The notes under the pieces were generated by a model. It made no database searches. It was not told where the DNA came from and saw only the letters and a list, made by a program, of their open reading frames with translations. DNA of 64,000 nucleotides from the sequence record OM386653.1; one strand, given 5' to 3'. The position numbers were made by a program, and so were the translations under genes. The DNA comes from Escherichia phage vB_EcoM_ESCO8. Each line of letters begins with the position of its first letter. The stretch's first letter is position 1. This document shows, piece after piece, positions 5,034 to 50,934 of the stretch.

Positions 5034-6833
5034 ATGACCCAAAAACTATATGAGGATGTAATCGGATTCCTCGAACAAACATCCGAAGAATTTACTCGTG
5101 AAAATGCAAACAAACCTGCAATGATTGTTAATACTCACCGAGACTTACTAGCAGGTATCCTAAGCAAGCACATGGCAATGACCCATATTTTACCGGAAGA
5201 TCTGGCAGAATGGCATAAAAGTGGGTATGGTCACATTCACGATTTAGATTATTTACTCTCACCTTTAACTAATTGTTGCCTGGTAAATTACCAAGATATG
5301 CTTGAGAACGGTTTCCGTATTGGTAATGCACATATTGAAAAACCAAAATCTATCGGTGTAGCGACTACTGTCCTAACTCAAATTATTCAAGCAGTAGCTT
5401 CTAGCCAATATGGTGGACAAACTTGTGCACATGTTGATACTGGGCTTAGTCAATACGTTAAAGCAAGTTTTAATAAAATATATGCCGATGTTGGCGATTA
5501 TGATATTGCTATGCGTATGGTAGATAAACAGGTCTATGATGCAATGCAAACTTTAATCTACCAGGTGAACACTCTAATGAGTGTAAATGGTCAGTCACCT
5601 TTTATAACAATTAGTTTAGGTTTGGATACCTCTGCTTTTGGTAGAATGATCACTAAAAACTACCTAATGGTGCACAAACAAGGATTGGGAAAAGATAGGG
5701 TAACTCCTGTGTTTCCTAAAGTTATCTTCTTCTTGGAAGATGGTGTTAACATGAAAGCTGGCGATCCAAATTATGATTTGAAGCAACTGGCAATGGAGTG
5801 TTGTGCTGAACGCATTTATCCTGATTTTATCTCTGTACCTTTAAACAAAGAAGTTACAGGATCTTCAGATGGTCGCGTCACAAGCATGGGTTGCCGTAGC
5901 TTCTTGTCATACTATGCAACAGAGCAAGGTGAAAAATATGATGGTCGTTTCAACTTAGGCGTAGTTTCTTTAAACTTACCTATCATTGCAGCAGAGTCCC
6001 GTGAAAAGGGCATCTTATTTACTGAACTGTTGGAACAACATATGGAGATGGCGTATAAGGCACATATGCTACGTGTTAACCGTATTAGACATACCAAAGC
6101 ATCTCAAAACCCTACATTGTTTATGGAAGGGGCTTTAGCTCGACTAGAAGCTAATGAAGAGATTGGTAAGCTATTTGAAGGTGGTTATGCCTCTATTAGT
6201 ATCGGTTATGTAGGTTTAGCAGAAGCTATGGAGATTTTATACCCAGGTAACACCAATCCAAAAGCAATGGGTAAAAACATCCTTCAATATATGAAGGATA
6301 TCTGTGGCACATTTAAAGAACGTTCTGGTTTAGCTTTTAGTTTGTATGGAACACCAGCAGAATCCTTGTGCTATAAATTTGCCAAAGCATTAAATGATCG
6401 CTATCCTGGTTCTATTGATCGTGACTACTTGACAAACTCTTTCCATCAACCTGTGTGGATGCACACTACCCCGTTCCAAAAGTGGGATTATGAGGAAGGT
6501 TTTGCACAAATCAGTAATGGTGGGAACATAGGCTATGTAGAAACACCAAACCTTAAAAATAACTTGCAAGCACTGGAAACCCTTGTAGATTATGCCTACA
6601 ACAAAATTCCTTATTTTGGCGTGAACCAACCTGTAGATCAGTGTTTCAAATGTGGTTTTCATGGTGAATTTAAGGCAACAGCTAAAGGCTTCGAGTGTCC
6701 AAGTTGTGGCAATCATGAGGAAGAATCTATATCTGTAATCAGAAGAGTGTCAGGATACCTGTCTGCCCCTAACTCTCGCCCTTATAATAAAGGTAAAATG
6801 CAAGAGGTATTAGAAAGGGAGAAACATTTTTGA
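5034..6833 (+). CDS. nrdD: anaerobic ribonucleoside-triphosphate reductase (class III RNR), NrdD
   Basis: C-terminal zinc ribbon CFKCGFHGEF...CPSCGN followed by glycyl-radical motif RRVSGYLSA; length about 600 aa; start set at ATG 5034 behind GGAGGA. Confidence 0.9.
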   Translation: MTQKLYEDVIGFLEQTSEEFTRENANKPAMIVNTHRDLLAGILSKHMAMTHILPEDLAEWHKSGYGHIHDLDYLLSPLTNCCLVNYQDMLENGFRIGNAHIEKPKSIGVATTVLTQIIQAVASSQYGGQTCAHVDTGLSQYVKASFNKIYADVGDYDIAMRMVDKQVYDAMQTLIYQVNTLMSVNGQSPFITISLGLDTSAFGRMITKNYLMVHKQGLGKDRVTPVFPKVIFFLEDGVNMKAGDPNYDLKQLAMECCAERIYPDFISVPLNKEVTGSSDGRVTSMGCRSFLSYYATEQGEKYDGRFNLGVVSLNLPIIAAESREKGILFTELLEQHMEMAYKAHMLRVNRIRHTKASQNPTLFMEGALARLEANEEIGKLFEGGYASISIGYVGLAEAMEILYPGNTNPKAMGKNILQYMKDICGTFKERSGLAFSLYGTPAESLCYKFAKALNDRYPGSIDRDYLTNSFHQPVWMHTTPFQKWDYEEGFAQISNGGNIGYVETPNLKNNLQALETLVDYAYNKIPYFGVNQPVDQCFKCGFHGEFKATAKGFECPSCGNHEEESISVIRRVSGYLSAPNSRPYNKGKMQEVLEREKHF

Positions 6834-7300
6834 ATTACGCCGGATATGAACCTGTTGACATGCTCAACGGTGATGGTGTAAGATGCTCTTTGTGGGTGAG
6901 CGGTTGTAGCCACGGTTGCCGTGGCTGCTTTAACCAGAAAGCCTGGTCGTATAACTACGGACAAGAGTTCACTACTGAAACATTAGATCTTATCTTGAAA
7001 GATTTATCTCGACCTTTCATTAAAGGATTAACAGTTTTAGGTGGTGAACCTCTTGACAAAGAGAACATTGACACTGTAGAGTATGTTCTTGAGAAGGTAA
7101 GAGATTGTTTTGGAAACAAAAAAGATATTGTCTTATATACAGGATATCTTTTTGAAGAAATTCCAGAGAAAATTAAAAAACTGGTTGACATAGTAATAGA
7201 TGGTAAGTATGATATGACTCAACCAACAACGAAACGTTATAGAGGTTCAGATAATCAACGAATGTGGGTTAAGAAAGACAACATTTGGGAATCTGACTAA
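6830..7300 (+). CDS. nrdG: anaerobic RNR activating enzyme (radical SAM), NrdG
   Basis: CSHGCRGC (CxxxCxxC) radical-SAM cluster motif, 156 aa, directly downstream of nrdD; TTG start overlapping the nrdD stop. Confidence 0.85.
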   Translation: MNYAGYEPVDMLNGDGVRCSLWVSGCSHGCRGCFNQKAWSYNYGQEFTTETLDLILKDLSRPFIKGLTVLGGEPLDKENIDTVEYVLEKVRDCFGNKKDIVLYTGYLFEEIPEKIKKLVDIVIDGKYDMTQPTTKRYRGSDNQRMWVKKDNIWESD

Positions 7301-7320
7301 ATTAAATAGAGGAGAAAACT

Positions 7321-8481
7321 ATGTTTACAGTATTCGGCAATCAAATCTTCCTGCGTCAGAAGTCTGGTACAGATATTGAAGAAATTCCAGCAGGAACTTT
7401 TGGTGTAGGTGTTACTCAAAGTGGCGAGTTCTTCCTGTATCCTAAAAACGATATGGAAGTCCCTTCAGTAACATACGGTGATACTGATGATAAATCAGAA
7501 CGTATTATCAAGACGTTCCTTAGCCGCAAAGGTAAAAACACAGGTGTTCTCCTTGAGGGTACGAAGGGTAGCGGTAAAACTTTGCAAGCTAAAATGCTGT
7601 CTTCTGCTCTTCGTGAAATGGGTATTCCTACTATTTCTATCGGTAGTGCTTTTAATGGTGAAGGCTTTATCAATTTTATGTCTAAAATCACACAACCTGT
7701 GATGATTATGATCGATGAATTTGATAAACTGTATGCTGAAAAAGATGCACAGGATGGTTTGCTTACCCTGCTGGATGGTGTTGGTGGCTATGACAAGCTG
7801 TTTGTATTGACTAAAAATGATGGTTATGTATCAGAATTTTTGCGTAATCGCCCTAGCCGTATTTTCTACAGCTTTAACTATAAGAAACTACCTAAAGCTA
7901 CTATGGATGATTATCTGGCTAAAAATCTGGAGAACAAAGCCTTTTTACCAGATTTTGAAACGCTTTATAATCTGTCCGTGGACTTGAACTTTGATATTGT
8001 TCAGTCATTAGTAGAAGAACTTAACCGTTACCCTAATGACAAATTCTCTGATGCACTTGCATTAATGGGTATCAGTATTACTGAACACCGCTATGCTGCA
8101 AAAGAAGTTAAACTTCTGAAAGTTAACGGTGTAGATCGTACAGGAGATGTTTCGGCAGATACCGATATTGACGGTATGACAGCACAGGGTTTGTTTAGCG
8201 GTAATCGTTATGTTGTAGCTGTAGACCATAAGCTAGGAGAAGAGCATCTTCCTGAAATGGAAGGAGTCGTTACCGTAGAAGATAAAGACGAAGAAGGTGA
8301 CTACTACTGGGGTGTAGACCGTATCTTGCTGACGTATGATGAAAAACACATCCGTACAATGGGCGGTGACGGTTATCACTTTATGTTCACCGATGATAAA
8401 GGTAACAACATTGAAGTTGTTATTAAAAACAAAGAACGTAAAAACTACACAGAGTATGTGTTTGGTGGTCGTTCTTACTAA
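7321..8481 (+). CDS. P-loop/AAA-type ATPase
   Basis: Walker A GTKGSGKTLQAK and Walker B-like VMIMIDEFDKL; function not assignable. Confidence 0.6.
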   Translation: MFTVFGNQIFLRQKSGTDIEEIPAGTFGVGVTQSGEFFLYPKNDMEVPSVTYGDTDDKSERIIKTFLSRKGKNTGVLLEGTKGSGKTLQAKMLSSALREMGIPTISIGSAFNGEGFINFMSKITQPVMIMIDEFDKLYAEKDAQDGLLTLLDGVGGYDKLFVLTKNDGYVSEFLRNRPSRIFYSFNYKKLPKATMDDYLAKNLENKAFLPDFETLYNLSVDLNFDIVQSLVEELNRYPNDKFSDALALMGISITEHRYAAKEVKLLKVNGVDRTGDVSADTDIDGMTAQGLFSGNRYVVAVDHKLGEEHLPEMEGVVTVEDKDEEGDYYWGVDRILLTYDEKHIRTMGGDGYHFMFTDDKGNNIEVVIKNKERKNYTEYVFGGRSY

Positions 8482-11660: not shown

Positions 11661-12638
11661 ATGCAACTGGGTTTCCCAATTATTGATGTGGTTGTTTTAG
11701 TGGGTATTTTAGTCTTGTCGATTTGTATTGACTTCTTTGGACACAGAGAAAACAAAGAAATTTCATTTAAATCTGCAATTGGCTGGTCAATTTTCTGGAT
11801 TGGGGTATCATTAGCCTACTATGGTTTTGTATACTTCCAACACGGTGCTGATTTTGCGAGCTTGTTCTTGAGTGGGTATGTGTTGGAGAAATCTCTTTCT
11901 GTAGATAACTTAGTAGTATTTGTAGCAGTATTCGCAAGTTTTGGTATTAAAAGCACACACTTGCAGCACAAGATTCTACTTTGGGGTATTGCAGGTGCGA
12001 TTGTCTTCCGAGGTGTGTTTGTAGCAGTAGGTACTTACTTGTTGAGTTTGGGCTGGTATGTTAATATCTTCTTCGGTGCTGTCATCCTTTTCTGTGCGGC
12101 TAAAATGGTATTCGCTGGAGATAATGATGCAGAAGTTGATTACTCTAAACACTGGGCTACTCGCATTGTTCGTAAGCTGTTCCCTGTATCTGATCAGATG
12201 GATGGTGAGAAGTTCTTCACAATCAAAAATGGTGTTCGTGTAGCAACTCCGGCTCTGGTTTGTGTGTTTGTAATGGAAATGGTTGACGTAATCTTTGCAG
12301 TAGACTCTGTTCCAGCAGTAATTGCAGTGACACAAGAACCTCTGCTGGTGTTCTCTTCGATGCTCTGTGCAATCTTAGGTTTACGTGCTCTGTTCTTTGT
12401 TCTTAGTGTTGCACTGAAGTATTTGGTTCATCTGGAGAAAGCAGTTATCGTAGTCCTGGTGTTTGTGGGTGTAAAACTGATGTATCACCCGTTTGCAGAA
12501 ACTCTGCACGCAAAAGTGAGTTTCCTGCCAGCACACATTGACCCGACGATCAGTATGTATATTGTGTTAGGTACTCTTGGGCTGGGTGTTCTTGCAAGTT
12601 TAATCTTCCCTGAAAAAGAAGACCAGGCTGTTGCTTAA
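11661..12638 (+). CDS. TerC-family integral membrane protein
   Basis: Polytopic membrane protein, 325 aa, with the TerC-family signature region GYVLEKSLSVDNLVVF; strong RBS AGAGGAGAAAAG. Confidence 0.75.
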   Translation: MQLGFPIIDVVVLVGILVLSICIDFFGHRENKEISFKSAIGWSIFWIGVSLAYYGFVYFQHGADFASLFLSGYVLEKSLSVDNLVVFVAVFASFGIKSTHLQHKILLWGIAGAIVFRGVFVAVGTYLLSLGWYVNIFFGAVILFCAAKMVFAGDNDAEVDYSKHWATRIVRKLFPVSDQMDGEKFFTIKNGVRVATPALVCVFVMEMVDVIFAVDSVPAVIAVTQEPLLVFSSMLCAILGLRALFFVLSVALKYLVHLEKAVIVVLVFVGVKLMYHPFAETLHAKVSFLPAHIDPTISMYIVLGTLGLGVLASLIFPEKEDQAVA

Positions 12639-17633: not shown

Positions 17634-18230
17634 ATGACTCAGAAAATTTCCCTGAAAAAAGGTTCTAGCGAAAAAGTTTCTCTGAAAAAGATTGCACCAG
17701 CACTGAAACGCATTCGTCTGGAATTCTCTTGGAAATCTAACGAAAAACTGGATCTGGATGTTAGTGCTCTGATTTGCCGACACAATGCATCTGGTCTGCC
17801 GGAACTGTTGTCTCCTCGCCACCTGGTATGCTACGCACAGAAATTTGATCCTGAACGTTCTACTTTTGCAGGTGAAGATGTTCGTGACGGTGTAGGACAA
17901 ATGGAGCAGATTGATGTTACACTGGATAATATCTCTGCTGAAGCACAGGAAATTGCATTCGTAATCACTATTGATGACGAAACGGGTAAGAAACGCCTTG
18001 GTCACGCTACCGAAGGTTTCCTTAAAATCTTCGATGATGAACGTAACGTTGAACTGCTGGATTTTGACTTCTTGGCTCCAGAACTTGCAGGTAATACCAT
18101 TTGCCACGTTGCCTCCCTGGTGCGGGAAGATAGCGAATGGAAACTGAAAGCATATGGTGTAGGTAAAGCTGGACTTGACATTTATGATGTAGTTAAAGCG
18201 TTTGGCGCTGGCGACGATTGGTTCGAGTAA
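17634..18230 (+). CDS. TerD-domain protein
   Basis: N-terminal ISLKKGSSEKVSLKK, LDLDVSALI, GEDVRDGVG and C-terminal WKLKAYGVGKAGL blocks characteristic of TerD; strong RBS AAGGAGA; codon choice strongly biased to CTG/CGT/GGT/GAA/AAA. Confidence 0.8.
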   Translation: MTQKISLKKGSSEKVSLKKIAPALKRIRLEFSWKSNEKLDLDVSALICRHNASGLPELLSPRHLVCYAQKFDPERSTFAGEDVRDGVGQMEQIDVTLDNISAEAQEIAFVITIDDETGKKRLGHATEGFLKIFDDERNVELLDFDFLAPELAGNTICHVASLVREDSEWKLKAYGVGKAGLDIYDVVKAFGAGDDWFE

Positions 18231-41273: not shown

Positions 41274-42761
41274 TTAGACTCCGTACTCGTAGGAAATATT
41301 ATCAAGGTCAAAGGATGGTACAACATTGTACGCTGGAGTGATATCTCCCTCATTATATTTACTGTCATCCTCAGTATTAAGTTTAACATAAACACGGAGA
41401 GAAGTCAAGCGTCCGAACGCAAGTGCAGAATAAATTACACCTTTTATCTGATCGTTAGTTACTGTTGACCCTAGCTCAAAATAAGCCTGTAAGTTTGCAA
41501 GAGCAGAAACAATATTTTCCCTTTCTGTTGTACTTAGCACACTACCATTGCCAGTTTGATACACCAGTTTAAGTGAATATTCAGCATTGTCACCAGGAGA
41601 AAAACGAATTACTTCTTGACCGCCATCTTCTGTTACGATAGTAATTGCTGTTGTACCATAGGTTAAGGTGTTAATAGGCTTAGTATTATAAATAACCTGT
41701 GCAACTTCTTCTGCTGTACCACCATACACAATAGTCTGGAATGTCATAGCTGGAGCATGTTCCTGATCATGTAATGTAGGGTTATCATAAATCTTAACCT
41801 TTGTCACACCATCTGTCAGTAGCAGAGCTTTAACAATAGCAGCACGAGTAGCAGCATTAGCTTCATCCATATTATCATTGAAACGAGAACGGAATTCTGC
41901 ATCTGTTTCAACATCTGTACCTGGAGAGAATGGATAGAAGTTACCTGTATCTAAAAAGCCTGTAAACGTTGAAGAAATACCTGTGATACTTTCTGTACCT
42001 ACTGGATTATAACCAACGTCTGAACACGTAACTGGAATTTCACTCCATTTTGTACCAATTGCAATAGATGCGTAAAATTTCACTGGTGTTACTAGACCTA
42101 TTGGGTTAACATTATCTTCTGGATTATAACCCATATAAACATTACTAGCATCATTCCATACTAAAGCACGATCTGTTGTTGATACGTTAGCTTTAATGAA
42201 ATTCGTGAGATCTAAAATAAAGTTTGTATTGCTAGGACTTAATGTTTTACTGTTAAGACCACCATCAATAGCACTTTGAATGTAGAAAGTAATAGAAGTT
42301 TCACCAGAAGCTGTTGCGTTTGCTTTAGAAATGGTGTATGCTCCAATCTTAGCATTCAACATTGTTGGTGCACTGATATAATATGTCAAATCGTTATCGG
42401 CATTAAAATAAACATCTGTGCTTAGTTCATAAGTCCAAGCTGCCTTATTGTTAGATTTAACATAAGCATAACCACTACCAGCAGAAGCAGCTTTACGATA
42501 AAAACCTCTTTTAGAGAAGATTTCATCAAGGTAAATACCTTCTGCACCATCTAAGGTTTGGGTATTGTAAACACCTTGCATACCTTCCCAAAGGGTGTAA
42601 TCTGTATATGCAATAATACGAAACAGTTGACCAAAGACAGTATCTTCAGATGTAGCTGTATCTGCACCGAAAGTGTTTTTCAATGCTGTCATATAATTAT
42701 TTAAAATATCATCAAACGTTGGAATTACAAAACCAGCATCTGTTAAACCATAATCTGCCAT
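41274..42761 (-). CDS. baseplate/tail structural protein (unassigned)
   Basis: 495 aa; translationally coupled to the upstream small ORF (TAATG overlap). Confidence 0.35.
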   Translation of the reverse strand: MADYGLTDAGFVIPTFDDILNNYMTALKNTFGADTATSEDTVFGQLFRIIAYTDYTLWEGMQGVYNTQTLDGAEGIYLDEIFSKRGFYRKAASAGSGYAYVKSNNKAAWTYELSTDVYFNADNDLTYYISAPTMLNAKIGAYTISKANATASGETSITFYIQSAIDGGLNSKTLSPSNTNFILDLTNFIKANVSTTDRALVWNDASNVYMGYNPEDNVNPIGLVTPVKFYASIAIGTKWSEIPVTCSDVGYNPVGTESITGISSTFTGFLDTGNFYPFSPGTDVETDAEFRSRFNDNMDEANAATRAAIVKALLLTDGVTKVKIYDNPTLHDQEHAPAMTFQTIVYGGTAEEVAQVIYNTKPINTLTYGTTAITIVTEDGGQEVIRFSPGDNAEYSLKLVYQTGNGSVLSTTERENIVSALANLQAYFELGSTVTNDQIKGVIYSALAFGRLTSLRVYVKLNTEDDSKYNEGDITPAYNVVPSFDLDNISYEYGV

Positions 42762-43006
42762 TAATTATCCTCCTTATCAGGGGCAGGTGATCTGCCCCAA
42801 CGTAAATCTATTAAATTCTTCATTAGTCTGGATGGTGTGATCATAAAAACAAAAGCCCAGCCCATCCATTCAGGAATTTCTTTATCAATTCCCAAATAAA
42901 TAAACATACTGGACATAACAATCATACCAATAGCATTCCAAACTTTAGTAGAACTGACTTTATTATCAGGATATGTACAGAACATACCTATTAAAAATTT
43001 TCTCAT
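42761..43006 (-). CDS. small membrane protein (two TM segments)
   Basis: 81-aa hydrophobic ORF; contains the RBS AAGGAGG of the next gene. Confidence 0.4.
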   Translation of the reverse strand: MRKFLIGMFCTYPDNKVSSTKVWNAIGMIVMSSMFIYLGIDKEIPEWMGWAFVFMITPSRLMKNLIDLRWGRSPAPDKEDN

Positions 43007-43144
43007 GGTGCGTTCTCATTACTTTTTAAATCACGATATACAGCTAATTCCCCAAGGTCTACAGAACCCGCTGAATGCACAAGTACAGCAGCACTAAGAC
43101 TAAAAGCAGTTCACCTGATTCATTCATAATATTACCGTAATTGT

Positions 43145-43161
43145 GCCCCCAATTCGGGGGC
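43145..43161 (-). terminator. GC-rich hairpin (gccccc / gggggc) downstream of the tailspike gene
   Basis: 6-bp GC stem; the U-rich tail is better on the plus side, so function is uncertain. Confidence 0.3.
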
Positions 43162-43173
43162 TTAGTGCTTATT

Positions 43174-45408
43174 TTAAAATATCATATTTCCTGTAGTTAC
43201 TATTGCGGATGAGTTTGTTGGTTCATTCACTCTTGTAACACCACGTTCCACATTACCTGTATGGTTCAAATAACTACCACCTGACGGAACAGTAGTCTGG
43301 AACTCAATACTACCACCCTGAAAGGTGTTCCCCGTAGAGTGTACACGGAAGACCCCCACTCCATTACTCAAACGATATGCTTTCGTACCGGTGGGGAGAA
43401 AAGCTACGTTGTTTTTATAGCTAAAGGTTATAGGACCAGAACCTTCGTCATCTTTATCAAGGCTAAAGTGACTGTTCAATCCGCTGGCACCAGTACCAAT
43501 CTGGCTCAACCCATGTACTTTAACTACCTGCTCCTTCGTTCCCTGGAATGAGAACCCAGTATTAGCCAAACTACCACCATTAATAGTAAATCTAATAGCT
43601 TGAACTATATTCTCCGGCGATGAACCTGAACCTACCAATTCGCAATCTATGAATGAAACCGCTGAACCACCAATGTAAGCAGAGTTGAAGTTTCTTACGT
43701 AGGTATTATCAAACACTACATGCTGTGTGAGCACATCAGGTAATGCCATCCCGCTCTGAGTGCTCAATATCACATCACCACCAGTGACTTTTGCGCCTCT
43801 ACCATAAACATTGGAACTCTGTGTGAATCTAAGTCCTTTATCGGCATCAGAGCTGTTGGCTCCAACGGTTACGTCGTTCAGAGTGTTTGCATCATTGTTT
43901 ACTCTAGCACCCTTAGTGAATACAGCTTGCTCAATATGCAGATTTGTTACTTTTGCCGTTGCAATTAAGTAATCACCAAAGTGGTTGGCTACGTGTATAG
44001 AGTCGGCTGAACTACCGTAATATTCGCCTGAGTTTGCGAAAGATAATAGTCCGTAGCAATTCTCGTAAGACAAATGATGCTCAAAAATACCATGCGTAGT
44101 GAATGCCCCATTTCTGGTGCCAGTTTCACCACAGTTCCTTACATTACAATAACTAGCCCCACTGAAATCTACGATATGTCGACCAGAGATATTGTATAAA
44201 TTCTCACAACGGCATTGATATGCATTGTTGAATTGGACAACATGGTCGCTACCGGGAACTCTAGGGAAGTTAGTAGTCGTATCGTGGACAAACACTTTTC
44301 GCACATAAGCTGTTACAACCATAGGGTATGGGTGGTCGTAGCCATCGCCAAGTGATACGTCTGCATTGTTAACGTACTCAAGAGAGACTAGTGCGCATGA
44401 TTGAGCACTAGCAAATGCATCACCGGAGCCAGTAGCATCAGTTATATTTTGGTTCCACCTAACGCCTTTCACCTTTATTTTTATATTTTCTAAAGGAGTA
44501 ACCTCTCGATAGCTTAGTGAACGACCGACAGATAAAGGCCACCCGGTCTTATAATCCACCCTTAACTGAGTTACCGCACCCCCGCTCCCTTGCACCTGCG
44601 TCATGACATTAATTTCACGACCAATGGTTCCGCTGCCTACATCAGAACTCATAATGACCCATTGCCGCTGGGTAAAGAGAGTGTTGTTTGTACACCAATA
44701 GGTGGTATCACCCTTGCTTATCTGGTTTGTTAACACAAAAGAGTCTATCAAGTTTCCAACACTTCCCCTGAACGCAATAATACCGGGGAAACGGTAGTTT
44801 GTGGTGTTAGAAGAACCAGTCCTGTCAGGGATATGTCCTTCAGGTGCGTTCCACAAAATAATGGTGTTCGGCAGCCATAGCTCCAAGTCACCACGCGTGA
44901 TTACGATATTATCTGTAAGGATTATCTCAGAGAGGTTGGAACTCAATTTCGTGATGGAACTGTTTACCGCCCGACGGAAAACGTCAGTTGCGTCAACCCC
45001 GGTGCGTGCTCCGAAGTCTTCTAGACTTGCTTCATTGGTATTAACGCAAACCCAAGCATAACCACTAGTTGTGGTAAAGATTGTCCCGCCGTTATCCACA
45101 AGTCCAGGGGTGTTAGAGCTTCGGAATAATCTGTTGCCACCTGATTCTATATCAGAATAGTAACTTTTAAGGCGGATAACTTGCCCCGGAAAATCCGGTT
45201 CAATAGTTCGAAGAGTAGCCACATCTGGACACTCACCTATAAACTTATATCCATCTGTATCTTTCAACTGGGTGGCTAAAACCACCCCAGTGTCAGTAAG
45301 AAAGTTGGAAACTGTGCTTTTAACAGTTTTATCAGATTGATCTAAAACCAGGTAATCTGAACCATTAACTTTTGATGTTTCGGGTAAATTAGTAATTGTA
45401 GTTGACAT
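43174..45408 (-). CDS. tailspike protein, apparently chimeric (phage-like N-terminal anchor plus GC-richer distal domain)
   Basis: 744 aa; N-terminus MSTTITNLPETSKVNGSDYLVLDQSDKTVKSTVSNF typical of fibre/spike anchors; central and C-terminal coding sequence visibly richer in G/C than neighbours. Confidence 0.5.
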   Translation of the reverse strand: MSTTITNLPETSKVNGSDYLVLDQSDKTVKSTVSNFLTDTGVVLATQLKDTDGYKFIGECPDVATLRTIEPDFPGQVIRLKSYYSDIESGGNRLFRSSNTPGLVDNGGTIFTTTSGYAWVCVNTNEASLEDFGARTGVDATDVFRRAVNSSITKLSSNLSEIILTDNIVITRGDLELWLPNTIILWNAPEGHIPDRTGSSNTTNYRFPGIIAFRGSVGNLIDSFVLTNQISKGDTTYWCTNNTLFTQRQWVIMSSDVGSGTIGREINVMTQVQGSGGAVTQLRVDYKTGWPLSVGRSLSYREVTPLENIKIKVKGVRWNQNITDATGSGDAFASAQSCALVSLEYVNNADVSLGDGYDHPYPMVVTAYVRKVFVHDTTTNFPRVPGSDHVVQFNNAYQCRCENLYNISGRHIVDFSGASYCNVRNCGETGTRNGAFTTHGIFEHHLSYENCYGLLSFANSGEYYGSSADSIHVANHFGDYLIATAKVTNLHIEQAVFTKGARVNNDANTLNDVTVGANSSDADKGLRFTQSSNVYGRGAKVTGGDVILSTQSGMALPDVLTQHVVFDNTYVRNFNSAYIGGSAVSFIDCELVGSGSSPENIVQAIRFTINGGSLANTGFSFQGTKEQVVKVHGLSQIGTGASGLNSHFSLDKDDEGSGPITFSYKNNVAFLPTGTKAYRLSNGVGVFRVHSTGNTFQGGSIEFQTTVPSGGSYLNHTGNVERGVTRVNEPTNSSAIVTTGNMIF

Positions 45409-45416
45409 TTTTACTC

Positions 45417-47576
45417 CTATATATAAAATTTTTGTGTTGTTACTAAATCTTCTCCAGATTTAGTGGCTAATGTAATTCCGCTTATAGTAGCAATCGTAAC
45501 ATTTACCTGTTTAAGAGTGATATCTTGCAAATAGCAATTCAAAGGCACATTACCCATATAAAAAACTTGGGATTTTGAATTAAGAACAGTTATTGAATCA
45601 TGCATTATTTGTGGATAAGCCCATATGTATTGATATAAACCAACAAACTTCTGGTCATTCAATACAATATTACCTATAATCATTTTCCACAAATATGTTC
45701 TGTAGTCTGATTCAGGATCAAAGCCATATAATGGTGCTAGAGGTGCATCTGGAACAAACCCTGCAAGATAATGTATCTTATCATAACTAAAACCTAGTTG
45801 CTCATTAGGTATTGTGATAGCGTCAAAAGATCTTTCCATCTTACCTTCCAACAACCAATCATAACATTCTGAACAATAAAAGTCAAAGTTTTCTGGGATA
45901 TAATAATCTTTAGGGAAGTTAACAAATTCCATCATACCGTTACCTAAGATGGATGGTACAAATGGTAACAATGTAACTTTTGCTCCAGGATATGCTAATC
46001 TAGTATCTGTTGCAAATTTAGCAACACGCAGTCCTAATGTTTTAGATAGGAATGCATAATATTCATCATATGGTGTACCAGTTTTATAATTCTTAACTGT
46101 ACCAACATCTTGTGCATATAATCCAGTTTCATTATTAAATGCAACTTTGGTTGCATAATCATAAATACACGGGAGATTGGTAGCTGTGTTATACCACCAC
46201 CACGGTTCACCAACCTGAATAATAACCGGAAGATCATTAGCAGCGGATATAGAAGCTATCTTATTTATTACACCTTGTAAATAATTCATCCCTTCATCAA
46301 TTGAAGGAGATAAAACATAACTTGGTGGCTCATAACCTGTAGCAGCAAGATCATCATTCCAAGCATGTTGTACCCATTCTACAGGACACACTGTACTCAT
46401 AAGTTCAAAACTTAAGGAGTTCATTACTGTGTAGCCCATAGCTTTTGCATTAGCGTGGAAATTATCAAACCAGGCTTCTGTTGCTGGGTTTAAATATTCT
46501 GTTCTGTTCAAAGCCCATTTATTAGATCCAGCATCCCAACTAAATTGATAATAGTGTGACATACCATTATAATGGTTAATCATATCTCTATAACCTAATC
46601 TATAGGTGTTAGAAATAACTCGCTCTGGGGTCAGGTTATACATATCATCATAAGATGTACACATTCTTATGGTGTGTGCTGGAACATTTAAATTACCCAT
46701 ATTCATCATACTGTAACCAGTATCAGGCTCCAGTATGGTAAACTTAAAGGAAAGATCCTCATTATCTACAGGTATAACATCTTCAATTTCTTGATACCTC
46801 GTTGAGATCAAAGAGAAGAACATGTTATCTATCTGTGTAGTGTCAACAACAATATCATTTTCTGACCCAGATTTTAAATTTGAGAAATCTAATTTGATTA
46901 TTGCTGTTTTACCGTCCTCTGAAACTTCTTCTGCATAAAAGTTTAGAGATACATAATGAACTGTTTCATCCTTCAGTGTCACTGTTAAGGATGGCATTAA
47001 TTTTTCTTCTTTTAACCCAGGAACACCTTGACTAAGTTCCATTTTAAACCAAAGTTTTTCTTTACTTAAATCAGAATGTTCTTGGTAGCCTAATCCTTTG
47101 TGATCATATTTATCGTAAGTTGACCAAATAATCCCAGCAAGACCAGCCACTGTCCTATTAACCATTCTTGCTGTGAAAGAATCACCATTAGAGATAATAG
47201 AACAACTCTCTGTTGCTTGAGAATCTATTGTCCAAAACTTAGGATCAAACATTCTAGACTTCACAACAGGCCAAGTTAGCGGGGTTGTATTCGATTGATT
47301 AGTCGTAATAACACAACGAATTTCTTCATTGATCATCATGTTATTTTGACTTATGCTAGTAATCTCAAGAGTAAAATAAAGATCTAAAGAGTTTGCCGGA
47401 CGTTCATATACATCAACCACTACAGTAACAGAATCTGCATCAGAAGGGAACGTTACTGTTCCCTGTTTAGCTACATAATCTCTACCAGCGACCGCCGTTC
47501 CATCGACGGTCTTATAGCTGAATGAACTGGCATTTACTCTCGTATTTCGAGTTACAGTAAAAATAGCCTGTTTCAT
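45417..47576 (-). CDS. large tail-associated protein (fibre/spike-like)
   Basis: 719-aa ORF in the tail region; no motif recognised. Confidence 0.4.
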   Translation of the reverse strand: MKQAIFTVTRNTRVNASSFSYKTVDGTAVAGRDYVAKQGTVTFPSDADSVTVVVDVYERPANSLDLYFTLEITSISQNNMMINEEIRCVITTNQSNTTPLTWPVVKSRMFDPKFWTIDSQATESCSIISNGDSFTARMVNRTVAGLAGIIWSTYDKYDHKGLGYQEHSDLSKEKLWFKMELSQGVPGLKEEKLMPSLTVTLKDETVHYVSLNFYAEEVSEDGKTAIIKLDFSNLKSGSENDIVVDTTQIDNMFFSLISTRYQEIEDVIPVDNEDLSFKFTILEPDTGYSMMNMGNLNVPAHTIRMCTSYDDMYNLTPERVISNTYRLGYRDMINHYNGMSHYYQFSWDAGSNKWALNRTEYLNPATEAWFDNFHANAKAMGYTVMNSLSFELMSTVCPVEWVQHAWNDDLAATGYEPPSYVLSPSIDEGMNYLQGVINKIASISAANDLPVIIQVGEPWWWYNTATNLPCIYDYATKVAFNNETGLYAQDVGTVKNYKTGTPYDEYYAFLSKTLGLRVAKFATDTRLAYPGAKVTLLPFVPSILGNGMMEFVNFPKDYYIPENFDFYCSECYDWLLEGKMERSFDAITIPNEQLGFSYDKIHYLAGFVPDAPLAPLYGFDPESDYRTYLWKMIIGNIVLNDQKFVGLYQYIWAYPQIMHDSITVLNSKSQVFYMGNVPLNCYLQDITLKQVNVTIATISGITLATKSGEDLVTTQKFYI

Positions 47577-47584
47577 TATTTTCC

Positions 47585-50461
47585 TTATTTGGTTACATCA
47601 ACACTAATATCATTCATAGTTAGAACAGTTAGTGTTGGTATGTTACTATTATCCAAAATTGGTAAAGCGTTTTGAGGGTTTAGTTTACGATACAAGGCAT
47701 ATAAACCAAAACCACGTAATAGTTCTCCAGCATGGAAACCAAAGAACATTCCGTTATCTGAATCTGGGCGTGGTGCAACACTCCAGGAACCATTCATCGG
47801 ATGGTTAGGGGAAAGCACAATATAGTTTTGCTGAATCAGATCAAAACATCTGTCTGCTACAATACCAATGTTTGGAATTTGTGAATCATAACCTGCCAAG
47901 CCCATGATTGAACAACCCGCCATAAACAGTGCAGACATATGACTAGTAAAGTCATCTATAGGCGCAAGAACTGTACCATCTGGGTTAAAGATAGTTGGTG
48001 TTCTTCCATCATTATTGTCTTGGAACCATTTAAGGTAGTTGATCCAATTTTTACAAACAGTTACTAGTTTTTCAGGAGGTGTTTCTCCTCTTTGTACAAG
48101 TTCGTATACAGCATGACAAGCACAGTAGAATGCACGAGCTTCATAACCATCCCACGCTTTTTCATTCCAGTGTTTCATAGTAAACGTATTAGGTTCACCG
48201 TATTTTCTTGCATCCCAACGATCCCACACATATGCTTGTGCCATAGGCCCAGGCATCACAGGATCAAACGTGTTATAAAACCACATTTGAGCATCATACA
48301 AGAAATCAATACTGTTGTTTAAACGTGTCCAATCAATATCCCTACCTGCGAAACAGTATAAGGAAGGATACTGGTATCCTGGGTATGGAATACCACGCCA
48401 TCCATCGTATAATGCAGTGTTTGGGTCACTGATATTAGAGAATGGAATTATTCCTGGTGTGTAATTAAGACTATTTAACTTATAGTCAATAATAGTACAA
48501 TCACCTAACTTAGCAGTATGAGGACTTGAAGCCTGTACAGTAATACGGAAGTACATGGTATAATCATCACCAGAAGATGACGAATATCTTTCAGGTACAT
48601 CGTTAATACAATAGAAATCTATTGTTCCTGTTAAACCATTGACAGGAGCCGTATCAAGAACTAAATTTACCTGATCTACAGCAGTAAGATTTATTGCTGA
48701 AGGTTTAGGATCTGTTTCTGGATGATTAGGCTGGTAAGCACTTAACTTAAAAGCAGAGGCTGATAAAGTCTTCGTACTCCATGCCCCTTGCGTTTTAGGC
48801 AGCATAGCCCACCATCTCCAACCTTGAGCATCCGTGATAGTCATGTTAAAGTCATCTTCATATGTTCTATATGTAATAGACTTAACATTAGCTTTTGATG
48901 TAGGAGTTAACCAAAAACCAACAGTAACACCACCATCCGTATCCATTGATGCAGTAACAATCTGGTCATTATTAGTTCCAGCAATACCTGTTACATACTT
49001 ATATTGTACCACAGTATTGTCACCCCAGTCAACAATAATTCGCGGATCTGCGATAATATATGTTCCACCATTTGGAGGGGTACTTCTCATAAAGCTGGAT
49101 AATGGAATATCCATGCTTGTCATATTCGCTGTACCTAGTGGTAAGCCACAACGGTAAGTTACTGTGTTATTTTCATCTTTGGTCTTACTTAGCTCCAATT
49201 CTGGACGGAAAAGGATACCATGTCCTGCGTCATCTACACCTTGGAACTGAACTCGTAACTTAGAGTTCTGATCAACTTTAAACCAAATAGATTGCTGTTC
49301 TAATGTTGTTTGAGCAGCAACATCTTGTCTAATAACAATATAACCTAAAGTATCTCTTGAATATTTAGGTATTGCTGTAGATGGATACGAATAATCGTAA
49401 GAGATGCCATCTGTAAACGGAATAGTTGCATATGTAGACTTACGGAAGAATTTATCAAACATATCAATGTTTGAATAATCTTGACACACTAACAGTGAAG
49501 ACTGCCAGCATAGCCAATATTTTCTTTCCCCTGTAATTTGGTACATCAGGTAATTAGCATCACACCACCAAGTTTCGGCATCTGACGCATTATCCTGAAA
49601 GCCCATTTCTACCGGAACGTTAACTGGTCTGTTATGCCACATAGTGTTACGCTCCATTAAATAACCACCGTGTTCAACAGGGTTACAAGTCGCGTAGTTA
49701 AATTTATATGTACCGTTTACAGAAGTATTTTTTAGTTGAACTGTTCCGTATTGAGATGTTGGAAAACCTTCTTCTAAGATATTTCCATCCCAATCAACTT
49801 TACGTCCTAGACGATCAATGATCCAATCAACATCCCATTGATCTCCATTCTTAGACCAATCTGTTGTACCATCTGCATTAACAGCATATACTGTAGCGTT
49901 TACAGAGTTCCATCCTAGATTACCATTAAAAGCAAACCATGCTTTGTCAAGGTATTCTCCCCAATGTGGAGCACCATGAGGAATAACTGTTCTACCGTTA
50001 GTCCACGTCATTAAGCTACCCTTGAAACCTCCGTGTGTAGGGTAGCCATCATCTGTAAGAGGATAATGTGCAAGGCGTGGTTCTTTACCGTTAATAATCC
50101 AATTAGGGCGATATTTTGCTGGCGGATCTGGGATAGGTTGACCGCCAAAGAAGTAATCTATATAGGCTTGCCAATATTTTTTAGCAGAGTCTAAATACTT
50201 TGTATCGCCGGAAGCTAGGTATGCATAAGCGCAACCAAGAATAAGCACGGATTGACCTTCTGTTGTAGCATCCCCGTTTGGTTGCCCTTCTTGAGCAGTC
50301 CAGTTTATAAAGTGTCTGTTATTAGCTAGAACGTTTTGTGGGTTTAATACATAGTGTTGCACTGTAGGATCTACAGTTAAACCTGTATTACGATCTAAGA
50401 ACTGAATATGTCCATCGATCAGTTGAAAAACATTGTCAATTCTGTGCTTAATTCTTGACAT
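47585..50461 (-). CDS. large tail-associated protein, possibly carbohydrate-active (fibre or depolymerase)
   Basis: 958 aa, Trp/Tyr-rich; no motif confirmed. Confidence 0.4.
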   Translation of the reverse strand: MSRIKHRIDNVFQLIDGHIQFLDRNTGLTVDPTVQHYVLNPQNVLANNRHFINWTAQEGQPNGDATTEGQSVLILGCAYAYLASGDTKYLDSAKKYWQAYIDYFFGGQPIPDPPAKYRPNWIINGKEPRLAHYPLTDDGYPTHGGFKGSLMTWTNGRTVIPHGAPHWGEYLDKAWFAFNGNLGWNSVNATVYAVNADGTTDWSKNGDQWDVDWIIDRLGRKVDWDGNILEEGFPTSQYGTVQLKNTSVNGTYKFNYATCNPVEHGGYLMERNTMWHNRPVNVPVEMGFQDNASDAETWWCDANYLMYQITGERKYWLCWQSSLLVCQDYSNIDMFDKFFRKSTYATIPFTDGISYDYSYPSTAIPKYSRDTLGYIVIRQDVAAQTTLEQQSIWFKVDQNSKLRVQFQGVDDAGHGILFRPELELSKTKDENNTVTYRCGLPLGTANMTSMDIPLSSFMRSTPPNGGTYIIADPRIIVDWGDNTVVQYKYVTGIAGTNNDQIVTASMDTDGGVTVGFWLTPTSKANVKSITYRTYEDDFNMTITDAQGWRWWAMLPKTQGAWSTKTLSASAFKLSAYQPNHPETDPKPSAINLTAVDQVNLVLDTAPVNGLTGTIDFYCINDVPERYSSSSGDDYTMYFRITVQASSPHTAKLGDCTIIDYKLNSLNYTPGIIPFSNISDPNTALYDGWRGIPYPGYQYPSLYCFAGRDIDWTRLNNSIDFLYDAQMWFYNTFDPVMPGPMAQAYVWDRWDARKYGEPNTFTMKHWNEKAWDGYEARAFYCACHAVYELVQRGETPPEKLVTVCKNWINYLKWFQDNNDGRTPTIFNPDGTVLAPIDDFTSHMSALFMAGCSIMGLAGYDSQIPNIGIVADRCFDLIQQNYIVLSPNHPMNGSWSVAPRPDSDNGMFFGFHAGELLRGFGLYALYRKLNPQNALPILDNSNIPTLTVLTMNDISVDVTK

Positions 50462-50934
50462 TAAATCACTCCTGCCATCACTAAACTACCTATCCAGGTA
50501 GCTCCATTATCATAACTAACAAATTCAAAAATATCTGTAGCTCCCTGTTTATAACTCAAAACAGGAGCGCGACCAAAACTCCATTTAACAGATTGAGGCC
50601 ACGTTACTTTATTTGCTCCACTGCCTTGACGTAGGGATAGTGTAAAGTTTTGAACAATGTTAGTTGTAACTGGAACATTACTAAATGAAATACTGCAAGT
50701 TGGACTAGATAAAGTGGCAGAGAAATACTCTGCCGTGCTAATATCTAAAGCTAGGGTATTTGTAACAGTACCCCTTGCAGAAAGACGGTTTCGTGTAACA
50801 CCAGCACCCGCAAGAAGAACACGTAATGATGTTTTCTTAGTGATGCCTGATTGATCTGTTACAAAATAATCTGTGTCTGAAACAGATGTTGTTACAGGTA
50901 GATCAGACACCTTGATTGTAGTTAAATCAGCCAT
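50461..50934 (-). CDS. tail/baseplate structural protein
   Basis: 157-aa ORF, overlapping coupled starts. Confidence 0.4.
   Translation of the reverse strand: MADLTTIKVSDLPVTTSVSDTDYFVTDQSGITKKTSLRVLLAGAGVTRNRLSARGTVTNTLALDISTAEYFSATLSSPTCSISFSNVPVTTNIVQNFTLSLRQGSGANKVTWPQSVKWSFGRAPVLSYKQGATDIFEFVSYDNGATWIGSLVMAGVI

Follow-up and report, generated by a model that had tools for sequence, protein, structure and literature searches.

The tailspike gene and its genomic slot

The window analysed here is a stretch of 64,000 nucleotides (nt) from Escherichia phage vB_EcoM_ESCO8, a phi92-like Justusliebigvirus of 148,860 bp in the subfamily Stephanstirmvirinae, and the element in question is a tailspike gene of 744 codons on its minus strand (Table 1). 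An exact-sequence look-up matched the 744-amino-acid (aa) product to UPW37474.1, the 'tail spike protein' of ESCO8; this is the "additional tail spike" of that phage, uncharacterised so far, and the ESCO8 paper places its gene at the position of phi92 gp143 (PMC10269720). The gene is chimeric, and it is very probably the accessory tailspike of a phi92-like myovirus in which a native N-terminal anchor has been joined, by recombination, to an imported distal module.

The 20 kb around the gene are 97-99% identical to many Stephanstirmvirinae phages except over ~11% of that length, and the flanks show the same 97-99% nt identity to sister phages. The gene occupies a slot between a ~719-aa NCTSP-like gene and an 81-aa membrane-protein gene, an arrangement also seen in VEcB, ALITA, EC.P2, ZCKP1, nieznany, Ec-G1, JLBYU50, PaulScherrer and 92CQ. 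Relative to VEcB the homology break spans 45259 to 43006, and homology to both VEcB and outra restarts exactly at 43006, the start codon of the 81-aa gene (called 'membrane protein' in relatives, with no Pfam match).

Within this slot the conserved part of the gene is short. Nucleotides 1-159 (53 codons) are matched at 95-100% identity by 80 Stephanstirmvirinae-type records, none of which matches any further. In ten sister phages the anchor MSTTITNLPETSKVNGSDYLVLDQ.DKTVKSTVSNFLTDTGVVLATQLKDTDG is nearly invariant, the stretch MSTTITNLPETSKVNGSDYLVLDQ...LKDTDG being nearly identical in all ten, while no pair of them has a full-length distal part in common; the distal parts range from 452 to 857 aa, and four of the ten phages have only the first 100-175 post-anchor residues in common. 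The conserved 53 residues would therefore be the particle-binding part, which presumably attaches the spike to the fibre or baseplate network of the virion, and the exchangeable receptor-binding part is found behind other anchors as well. In nine of the ten sister phages the G+C fraction rises from 0.35-0.38 in the anchor to 0.41-0.48 in the distal part; compositional chimerism thus characterises the slot throughout the subfamily and is not peculiar to this phage.

In outra, the closest published relative of ESCO8, the whole slot is empty (contig L018, 6480-6512, aligned with window 43006-45521), and the deletion extends into the upstream 719-aa gene, whose last ~35 codons are replaced so that it encodes 691 aa in outra. 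The slot of ESCO32 is also empty, according to the ESCO8 paper (PMC10269720). Because the anchor is kept, the distal part is variable and the slot is empty in outra, the slot is hypervariable and the spike dispensable.

Relatives and carriers of the distal module

The phage DNA collection searched comprised 50,697 records, including Agtrevirus AV101 and evidently not ESCO8; within it neither megablast nor blastn found a DNA match to the distal module, and the best tblastn match in the annotated phage collection was a Vibrio phage 'hemagglutinin' at 25% identity. A large protein database yielded 12 clusters at 61-95% aa identity to the module. The N-termini ahead of it in these clusters are PF18668-type, P22 head-binding or unrecognised, and the architectures within the 90% cluster measure 744, 904, 914, 938 and 1,184 aa. 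The module is found behind at least four other unrelated anchors, and at least six N-terminal architectures carry it.

The closest relatives lie in L016 and L017, two Agtrevirus-like (Ackermannviridae) contigs whose baseplate region and backbone are 97.8% identical to AV101. These match window positions 45255-43145 at 98.96% nt identity (22 mismatches in 2,111 nt, no gaps), the first 530 nt (gene nt 154-683) being identical. The matching segment forms the C-terminal 693 aa of a 1,184-aa protein (P0015), a spike resembling tailspike protein (TSP) 4, which sits in a cluster of four tailspike genes. A second carrier, L004, is a Zewailvirus-like myovirus contig of ~48 kb with a backbone 90-92% identical to Zewailvirus ZCEC13 and a module at 92.1% nt identity; one siphovirus-like contig and one additional phage also carry the module. 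More distant homologues are the spikes of P22-like prophages in 15 E. coli chromosomes (68-71% nt identity) and a P22-like spike cluster of 180 member sequences (P0004), ~70% identical in aa over the whole module.

The 744-aa architecture itself recurs in four further sequence variants, on more than 12 contigs in total, the longest being 143-152 kb. Between the window copy and two 1,184-aa copies (P0025 and P0015) there are 3-5 aa differences, between it and other 744-aa copies 15-19, and this interleaving of Stephanstirmvirinae and Agtrevirus-type copies suggests repeated exchange.

The first-pass annotation of this DNA had proposed a horizontally exchanged module on a conserved anchor, and a recent, host-range-related swap. 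The conservation of the anchor is confirmed by the 80 records and ten sister phages described above, and the exchange by near-identity to an Ackermannviridae tailspike and by the other anchors. Recency holds in that the distal 2.1 kb are 98.96% identical to the Agtrevirus-like copy, and host-range module swapping is supported by the module's recurrence behind at least four unrelated anchors and by its β-helix depolymerase fold (see below). Domain-wise BLAST, which had been suggested as a check, located both the recombination junction and an Agtrevirus-type partner lineage.

Several of the carriers show features of their own. L016 and L017 (16441-19688) are near-identical except for the third spike of the cluster; there one contig encodes an 818-aa β-helix spike and the other a 1,086-aa endosialidase, another live cassette replacement. 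Among the prophage homologues, that of E. coli 1EC187 (L003, 5308-7758; sequence type ST410, O8:H9) lies in a degraded P22-like remnant at the argW/intS site, and that of a red-fox E. coli isolate in a fuller P22-like prophage adjoining the bio operon. E. coli K71-77 (ST410) is another of the 15 genomes; in L002 the homologue spans 5311-7758.

Junctions and downstream spacer

Both ends of the module can be placed at nucleotide resolution. Identity to ALITA-type sister phages reaches ...GATACAGATGGA (gene nt 159) and identity to the Agtrevirus-type gene of L016 and to L004 begins at GATGGATATAAG (gene nt 154); thus the crossover lies within the 6-nt sequence GATGGA. Behind each of the other anchors, too, the module starts with this hinge ('DG[YF]K.IGEC').

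At the other end, donor-type identity passes the stop codon and ends after ACTAAGCCCCCGAATTGGGGGC. This zone contains, just past the stop codon, a GC-rich hairpin (43145-43161; fold energy -13.9 kcal/mol) that is the intrinsic-terminator stem in donor-type loci, and it occurs once in the window, with 0.01 chance occurrences expected. After the hairpin, L016 and L004 continue with TTTTCTT, but the window and Ec-G1 with ACAATTA; the terminator T-tract is thus intact in the former pair and lost in the window. A promoter and terminator scan of 42700-43400 returned zero sites by its criteria, the hairpin being missed because the window has no T-tract. Because Ec-G1, which has an unrelated spike, shows the same hairpin and downstream sequence as the window, the hairpin probably pre-existed in the recipient slot, where it would have provided the homology for the right-hand crossover. 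Neither junction interrupts the reading frame.

The spacer beyond the hairpin is itself composite. It holds a 43-nt segment that is also present in Ec-G1 and is identical to an intergenic stretch elsewhere in the Agtrevirus-like tailspike cluster, followed by a relic of a ~101-aa open reading frame (ORF). The relic reads in one frame as ...SAAVLVHSAGSVDLGELAVYRDLKSNENAP followed by a stop codon. PaulScherrer, ALITA and Ec-G1 each have a small 'tailspike protein' ORF whose 3' end matches it at 99% nt identity. The ~101-aa ORF is intact in several sister phages and has 63-84% aa identity to the N-terminal ~94 residues of the L016/L017 spikes. Layered relics of this kind indicate that Ackermannviridae spike-cluster DNA entered the slot earlier, and speak for import over export. 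In sister phages, such N-terminal spike fragments, annotated 'tailspike protein' and 63-102 aa long, lie 3' of the variable spike; the intact ~101-aa ORFs may be either functional adaptors or mere relics.

Composition and codon usage

The homology break is accompanied by a break in base composition. In 200-nt windows the G+C fraction (GC) is 0.29-0.37 across 45200-45700 and 0.41-0.49 across 43200-45200, and the highest-GC 2-kb stretch of the window begins at 43251 (0.443 vs a window mean of 0.380; standard deviation 0.029 in 500-nt windows). A maximum-likelihood single change-point for 43007-47576 falls at 45297 (2-log-likelihood support interval 45124-45366), with a log-likelihood ratio of 21.3 vs a maximum of 7.5 among 300 codon-block shuffles, and the homology junction at 45250-45259 falls inside the support interval. 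Codons 1-51 (nt 1-153) have a GC of 0.353 and a GC at third codon positions (GC3) of 0.275; the values are 0.440 and 0.390 for the remaining gene. At synonymous sites alone (GC3s) the module has 0.381, the anchor 0.250 and the backbone 0.237. The gene ranks second in GC3 among the 53 ORFs of at least 150 aa (0.383 vs 0.264 +/- 0.047 in the others), and the six other fibre or spike genes are backbone-like (0.20-0.27). The codons CCC, CCG and CGG together reach 17.2 per 1000 in codons 104-336 (window 44400-45100) vs 4.2 in the backbone, an excess of ~4-fold.

An AT-rich 5' end, a GC-richer remainder and an excess of CCC, CCG and CGG codons at about 44400-45100 had all been noted in the first-pass annotation, and each is recovered here; the sliding GC and codon-usage analysis that it recommended finds a breakpoint, with the shift at synonymous sites. 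The limits that it gave require adjustment. The stretch of about 45200-45408 is indeed AT-rich but overstates the native part, which is 45250-45408 (159 nt), and 44400-45100 is the peak of an elevation that extends over the entire distal 2.08 kb. 'GC-richer' applies only when the reference is this AT-rich phage; the backbones of Agtrevirus-like and Zewailvirus-like carriers have a higher GC than the module.

The latter point is revealing of how little composition says about origin. In the Agtrevirus-like contig the backbone genes have a GC3 of 0.55-0.60, all four spikes 0.33-0.39 and the module 0.39; in the Zewailvirus-like contig the backbone has 0.48-0.58 and the module 0.40. The composition of the module is thus constant across these carriers (GC ~0.44, GC3 ~0.39), and it appears GC-rich in ESCO8 only because this backbone is AT-rich. 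Its P22-like prophage relatives have a GC of 0.38 and a GC3 of 0.26. Since the module stands out compositionally from the backbone of each carrier examined, composition flags the graft and does not name the donor, and its use as a donor fingerprint was rejected.

Composition alone is also not diagnostic of a graft, because the major capsid, TerC and TerD genes are GC3-high too. The major capsid gene (61949-62950; Pfam Phage_cap_E, E 1e-39) is the top GC3 ORF and the other GC-rich island of the window (GC 0.463, GC3 0.395), and its high GC3 is probably expression-linked codon bias rather than a sign of transfer. The TerC-family and TerD-domain genes (11661-12638 and 17634-18230; GC3 0.380 and 0.357) also rank near the top of the window in GC3 and may be acquired accessory genes.

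Fold, sub-domains and predicted function

The AlphaFold2 (AF2) monomer model is that of a β-helix spike (mean predicted local distance difference test score, pLDDT, 73; below 50 for residues 1-51), with the central right-handed parallel β-helix domain that characterises tailspike depolymerases; the structure prediction proposed in the first-pass annotation therefore assigns the distal domain to this fold. Sequence matches to the PDB cover only aa 39-140 and comprise CBA120 TSP2 (5w6p, 6w4q; E 2.4e-11) and 6tgf (E 6.8e-8). PHROG tail-fibre and exopolysaccharide-depolymerase families match the N-proximal stretch, the PHROG hits being to generic tail-fibre families and restricted to aa 16-268. 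Two further homologues show opposite patterns of similarity: L005 is 85-94% identical in nt to ~aa 475 and 50-59% thereafter, while L006 is 50-75% identical upstream and 91-96% after ~aa 476. Thus, the β-helix body and the C-terminal domain are exchanged independently of each other, with a breakpoint near 43984.

Pfam domains that define related spike classes are absent from the window protein. No endosialidase β-propeller, β-barrel or tail-spike domain (Pfam End_*) matched at E <=0.01, nor did the Ackermannviridae N-terminal PF18668-type domain (present in P0001, P0003 and P0015) or the PF09008 head-binding domain (present in P0004 and P0005). PF27114 (Phage_tail_beta) is precomputed on most homologues, and the local Pfam library, possibly older than that model, gave no family for the window protein.

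The structural neighbours of the module include lyases, hydrolases and epimerases. Its sequence identity to solved β-helix depolymerase spikes (phi297 gp61, LKA1 gp49, the Klebsiella K1 lyase, K64-1 S2-4 and AP22 gp54) is 13-15%; at this level, and with both lyases and hydrolases among the structure matches, neither chemistry nor substrate can be transferred. The protein is most likely a trimeric, glycan-specific depolymerase spike that would add one O- or K-antigen type to the host range; enzymatic activity and substrate stay at the level of prediction, because no catalytic residues were found and the model is of a monomer.

The O8 antigen was considered as a receptor. TSP1 of AV101 is O8-specific (PMC10791037), and two carriers of the ~70% prophage homologue are of ST410, one of them typed O8:H9 (PMC8110189, PMC7283256). 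O8 was not adopted, because no phage record, AV101 included, resembles the module at more than 25%.

Origin of the module and direction of transfer

The interpretation that accommodates most of these observations is import by recombination. The 53-residue lineage-specific anchor would dock the spike onto the fibre or baseplate network of the virion, and the 691-residue cassette (small N-proximal domain, β-helix body and C-terminal domain) would bind and cleave one surface polysaccharide, O-antigen or capsule, adding one host glycotype to the range of the phage. The cassette was presumably installed by double-crossover recombination with another phage genome, in co-infection or with a prophage. 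The left crossover would have fallen in GATGGA, within the Asp-Gly hinge with which the module begins whatever anchor precedes it, and the right crossover in the ~21-nt terminator hairpin directly after the stop codon, already present in the recipient slot. The closest partner known so far is a TSP4-like spike from an Agtrevirus-type phage of the Ackermannviridae (99% nt identity).

Import into Justusliebigvirus is the more likely direction. It is favoured by the T-tract that is intact in L016 and L004 and lost in the window, by the Ackermannviridae tailspike N-terminal relic downstream in the slot, and by the deep diversity of the module family (61-83% aa identity) outside Stephanstirmvirinae.

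Several results weigh against this interpretation or parts of it. The module is compositionally foreign in L004 and in the Agtrevirus-like contig as well (backbone GC3 0.55-0.60, module 0.39), which leaves room for a third, unsampled source. The 22 differences from L016 are unbiased in AT/GC direction (10 vs 11); polarised with outgroups, substitutions number 21 GC>AT vs 9 AT>GC on the window branch and 8 vs 6 on the L004 branch, which is only suggestive. Neither the polarised substitutions nor the 22 differences contain a detectable amelioration signal that would date or orient the event, and amelioration tests were rejected as evidence for timing or direction because the differences from the 99% relative are unbiased. 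The interleaving of the copies is more easily explained by exchange that was repeated or went both ways than by one event. With regard to function, no catalytic residues could be identified in the module, and the local Pfam (E up to 0.01) and NCBIfam libraries contain no matching family for the protein.

A possible, though unlikely, alternative is that the module came from a third reservoir, for instance temperate phages or prophages of Enterobacteriaceae, that Justusliebigvirus and the Agtrevirus-type phage are both recipients, and that it has moved repeatedly among virulent phages. Such a source would account for a module GC3 of 0.39-0.40 that matches no carrier backbone (0.26 here; 0.48-0.60 in L016 and L004) and for copies that interleave between two families; 15 E. 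coli genomes do have related spikes in P22-like prophages, and the authors of the AV101 study propose prophages as a source of receptor-binding domains (PMC10791037). However, the prophage copies are only ~70% identical and differ in composition (GC 0.38, GC3 0.26), no candidate source closer than the 99% Agtrevirus-type copy was found, and the spacer holds other pieces of Ackermannviridae tailspike-cluster DNA.

Transfer in the reverse direction, from a module resident in Stephanstirmvirinae to Agtrevirus-type and other phages, is considerably less probable. In its favour, the Agtrevirus and Zewailvirus-like backbones are less AT-rich than the module, as would be expected if the donor was AT-rich, and there are several independent 744-aa Stephanstirmvirinae copies. 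Yet it is GC-richer than the Stephanstirmvirinae backbone at synonymous sites (0.381 vs 0.237), it is missing from the 80 sister records, and its relatives at 61-83% aa identity all stand behind non-Stephanstirmvirinae anchors; the loss of the T-tract and the truncated relic, both cited above in favour of import, likewise speak against it.

That no transfer took place, the GC and codon shift reflecting amino-acid composition or codon-usage selection in a structural gene, is barely credible. The major capsid gene demonstrates that a high GC3 can arise without transfer; nevertheless, the shift sits at synonymous sites, the other six fibre or spike genes are backbone-like, the composition break coincides with a sharp homology break, and there is 99% nt identity to a gene of an unrelated phage family; the homology break and this identity effectively refute the explanation. 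An assembly artefact, a contig wrongly joined at the junction, found no supporting point and is the least credible explanation of all, given the exact protein in a deposited complete phage genome, the recurrence of the 744-aa architecture in four further variants on more than 12 contigs (longest 143-152 kb) and a reading frame intact over both junctions.

Comparison with known spike systems

Receptor-binding modules of this kind have precedents. The gene lies at the genomic position of phi92 gp143, part of the 'multivalent adsorption apparatus' of Justusliebigvirus and Phapecoctavirus, and like gp143 it is one of several co-encoded spikes and fibres, each adding a glycan specificity; such 'Swiss army knife' spike sets of phi92-like phages have been described (PMC11984140, PMC8594841). 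Unlike gp143, which is an endosialidase, the window protein is without endosialidase domains (Pfam) and carries an unrelated β-helix module.

Exchange of receptor-binding domains is also documented for the Ackermannviridae tailspikes (TSP1-4 of Agtrevirus AV101 and of Kuttervirus CBA120), and the module is 99% identical in nt to a TSP4-like spike of this group. Like CBA120 TSP2, the window protein has a small domain before the β-helix (residues ~40-140). Unlike these spikes it is without the N-terminal PF18668-type region of its 1,184-aa relative, only residues 54-744 being common to the two, and it therefore cannot belong to the Ackermannviridae branched complex. P22-like (Lederbergvirus-type) prophage tailspikes share the same layout, a particle-binding N-terminus followed by an exchangeable β-helix module, but differ in their PF09008 head-binding anchor, podovirus virion and GC of 0.38. 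Judged by the N-terminal or catalytic domains that define Ackermannviridae, P22-type and endosialidase spikes, the window protein belongs to none of these classes, and only the receptor-binding cassette is shared.

The swapping of distal tail-fibre adhesins in T-even phages and the transfer of P2 tail-fibre genes likewise involve recombination at short conserved flanking sequences (references cited in PMC11414711); in contrast to these, the sites used here would be only 6 nt at a domain hinge on the 5' side and a non-coding terminator hairpin on the 3' side. Allelic fibre variation in phi92-like phages and receptor-binding-domain exchange among Ackermannviridae, prophages and a phapecoctavirus have been published already (PMC11984140, PMC8594841, PMC10791037, PMC11414711), including receptor-binding domains that AV101 TSP4 and the phapecoctavirus share (PMC10791037). 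Spike exchange between Agtrevirus and Stephanstirmvirinae is thus an already published phenomenon, of which the present case is an unusually cleanly resolved further example.

Feature coordinates and neighbouring genes

The window encodes further large fibre or spike genes of 958, 719, 804, 653 and 628 aa, in agreement with the first-pass count of at least five. The 719-aa upstream neighbour contains the Pfam domains NCTSP_N ('non-contractile tail sheath' N-terminal), TIM-barrel_NCTSP and Calx-beta, and its labels in relatives vary between tail fibre, 'capsid and scaffold' and glycosidase/deacetylase fibre. A 157-aa tail-fibre protein (ORF 50461..50934) has an N-terminus (window 50797-50910) that is a weak paralogue of the spike anchor (39% identity over aa 5-42, E 1e-4); the two proteins may use the same kind of docking site.

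Table 1. Coordinates of the tailspike gene, its parts, junctions and surroundings (window positions unless a contig is named)
Feature	Position	Strand	Remarks
Tailspike ORF	43174..45408	-	ATG start, 744 aa; coordinates identical to those of the first-pass annotation
Native N-terminal anchor, codons 1-53 (MSTTITNLPETSKVNGSDYLVLDQSDKTVKSTVSNFLTDTGVVLATQLKDTDG)	45250..45408	-	nt 1-159 conserved in 80 phage records
Distal cassette, very probably imported, codons 54-744 + stop	43174..45249	-	GC 0.440, GC3 0.390; homology to other phage families
5' crossover, 6-nt microhomology GATGGA, codons Asp52-Gly53	45250..45255	-	common to recipient-type and donor-type sequences
3' crossover zone (ACTAAGCCCCCGAATTGGGGGC)	43145..43166	-	common to window, L016/L017, L004 and Ec-G1
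43-nt spacer segment	43107..43149	-	100% identity to L016 16225-16267, a different intergenic stretch; also in Ec-G1
Relic, last 32 codons of ~101-aa ORF, no start codon	43007..43103	-	Ackermannviridae tailspike N-terminal fragment
Sub-domain aa 54-140, small N-proximal domain before β-helix	44989..45249	-	PDB sequence matches; boundaries approximate
Sub-domain ~aa 141-475, right-handed parallel β-helix, presumed catalytic body	43984..44988	-	
Sub-domain ~aa 476-744, C-terminal β-rich part, separately exchangeable	43177..43983	-	mosaic breakpoint near aa 475
Left flank, conserved: gene of 719-aa fibre or sheath-like protein	45417..47576	-	97.9% nt identity to VEcB; GC 0.348, GC3 0.247
Right flank, conserved: 81-aa membrane-protein gene	42761..43006	-	homology to all sister phages restarts
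Small ORFs of sister phages	L014 5129-5434; L012 5305-5613; L011 5106-5414; L010 6094-6402; L008 5159-5350		

Significance

The current picture of modular spike evolution, which is already well documented, is unchanged by these findings. The locus contributes a nucleotide-resolution example of a virulent, AT-rich, jumbo-class myovirus gaining a predicted host-recognition enzyme from an unrelated phage family; a 6-nt hinge microhomology and a terminator hairpin mark the two crossovers, and layered relics of earlier swaps are preserved as well.

It may be speculated, although the proposal is rather doubtful, that the hinge codons ('DG[YAF]xxIG') and the post-stop hairpin are conserved 'cassette ends', a quasi-standardised exchange format; that such a format would extend over Stephanstirmvirinae, Ackermannviridae, Jameshumphriesvirinae and P22-like phages is an equally tentative suggestion. 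If this were true, complete receptor-binding cassettes would move between virulent phages with very different backbones, and the interleaving of Justusliebigvirus and Agtrevirus copies would reflect frequent, ongoing and bidirectional traffic.

The exact junctions mark positions where spike modules could be engineered into phi92-like therapeutic phages, and the "additional tail spike" of ESCO8 is now tied to a module family of Agtrevirus, Zewailvirus-like phages and E. coli ST410 prophages.

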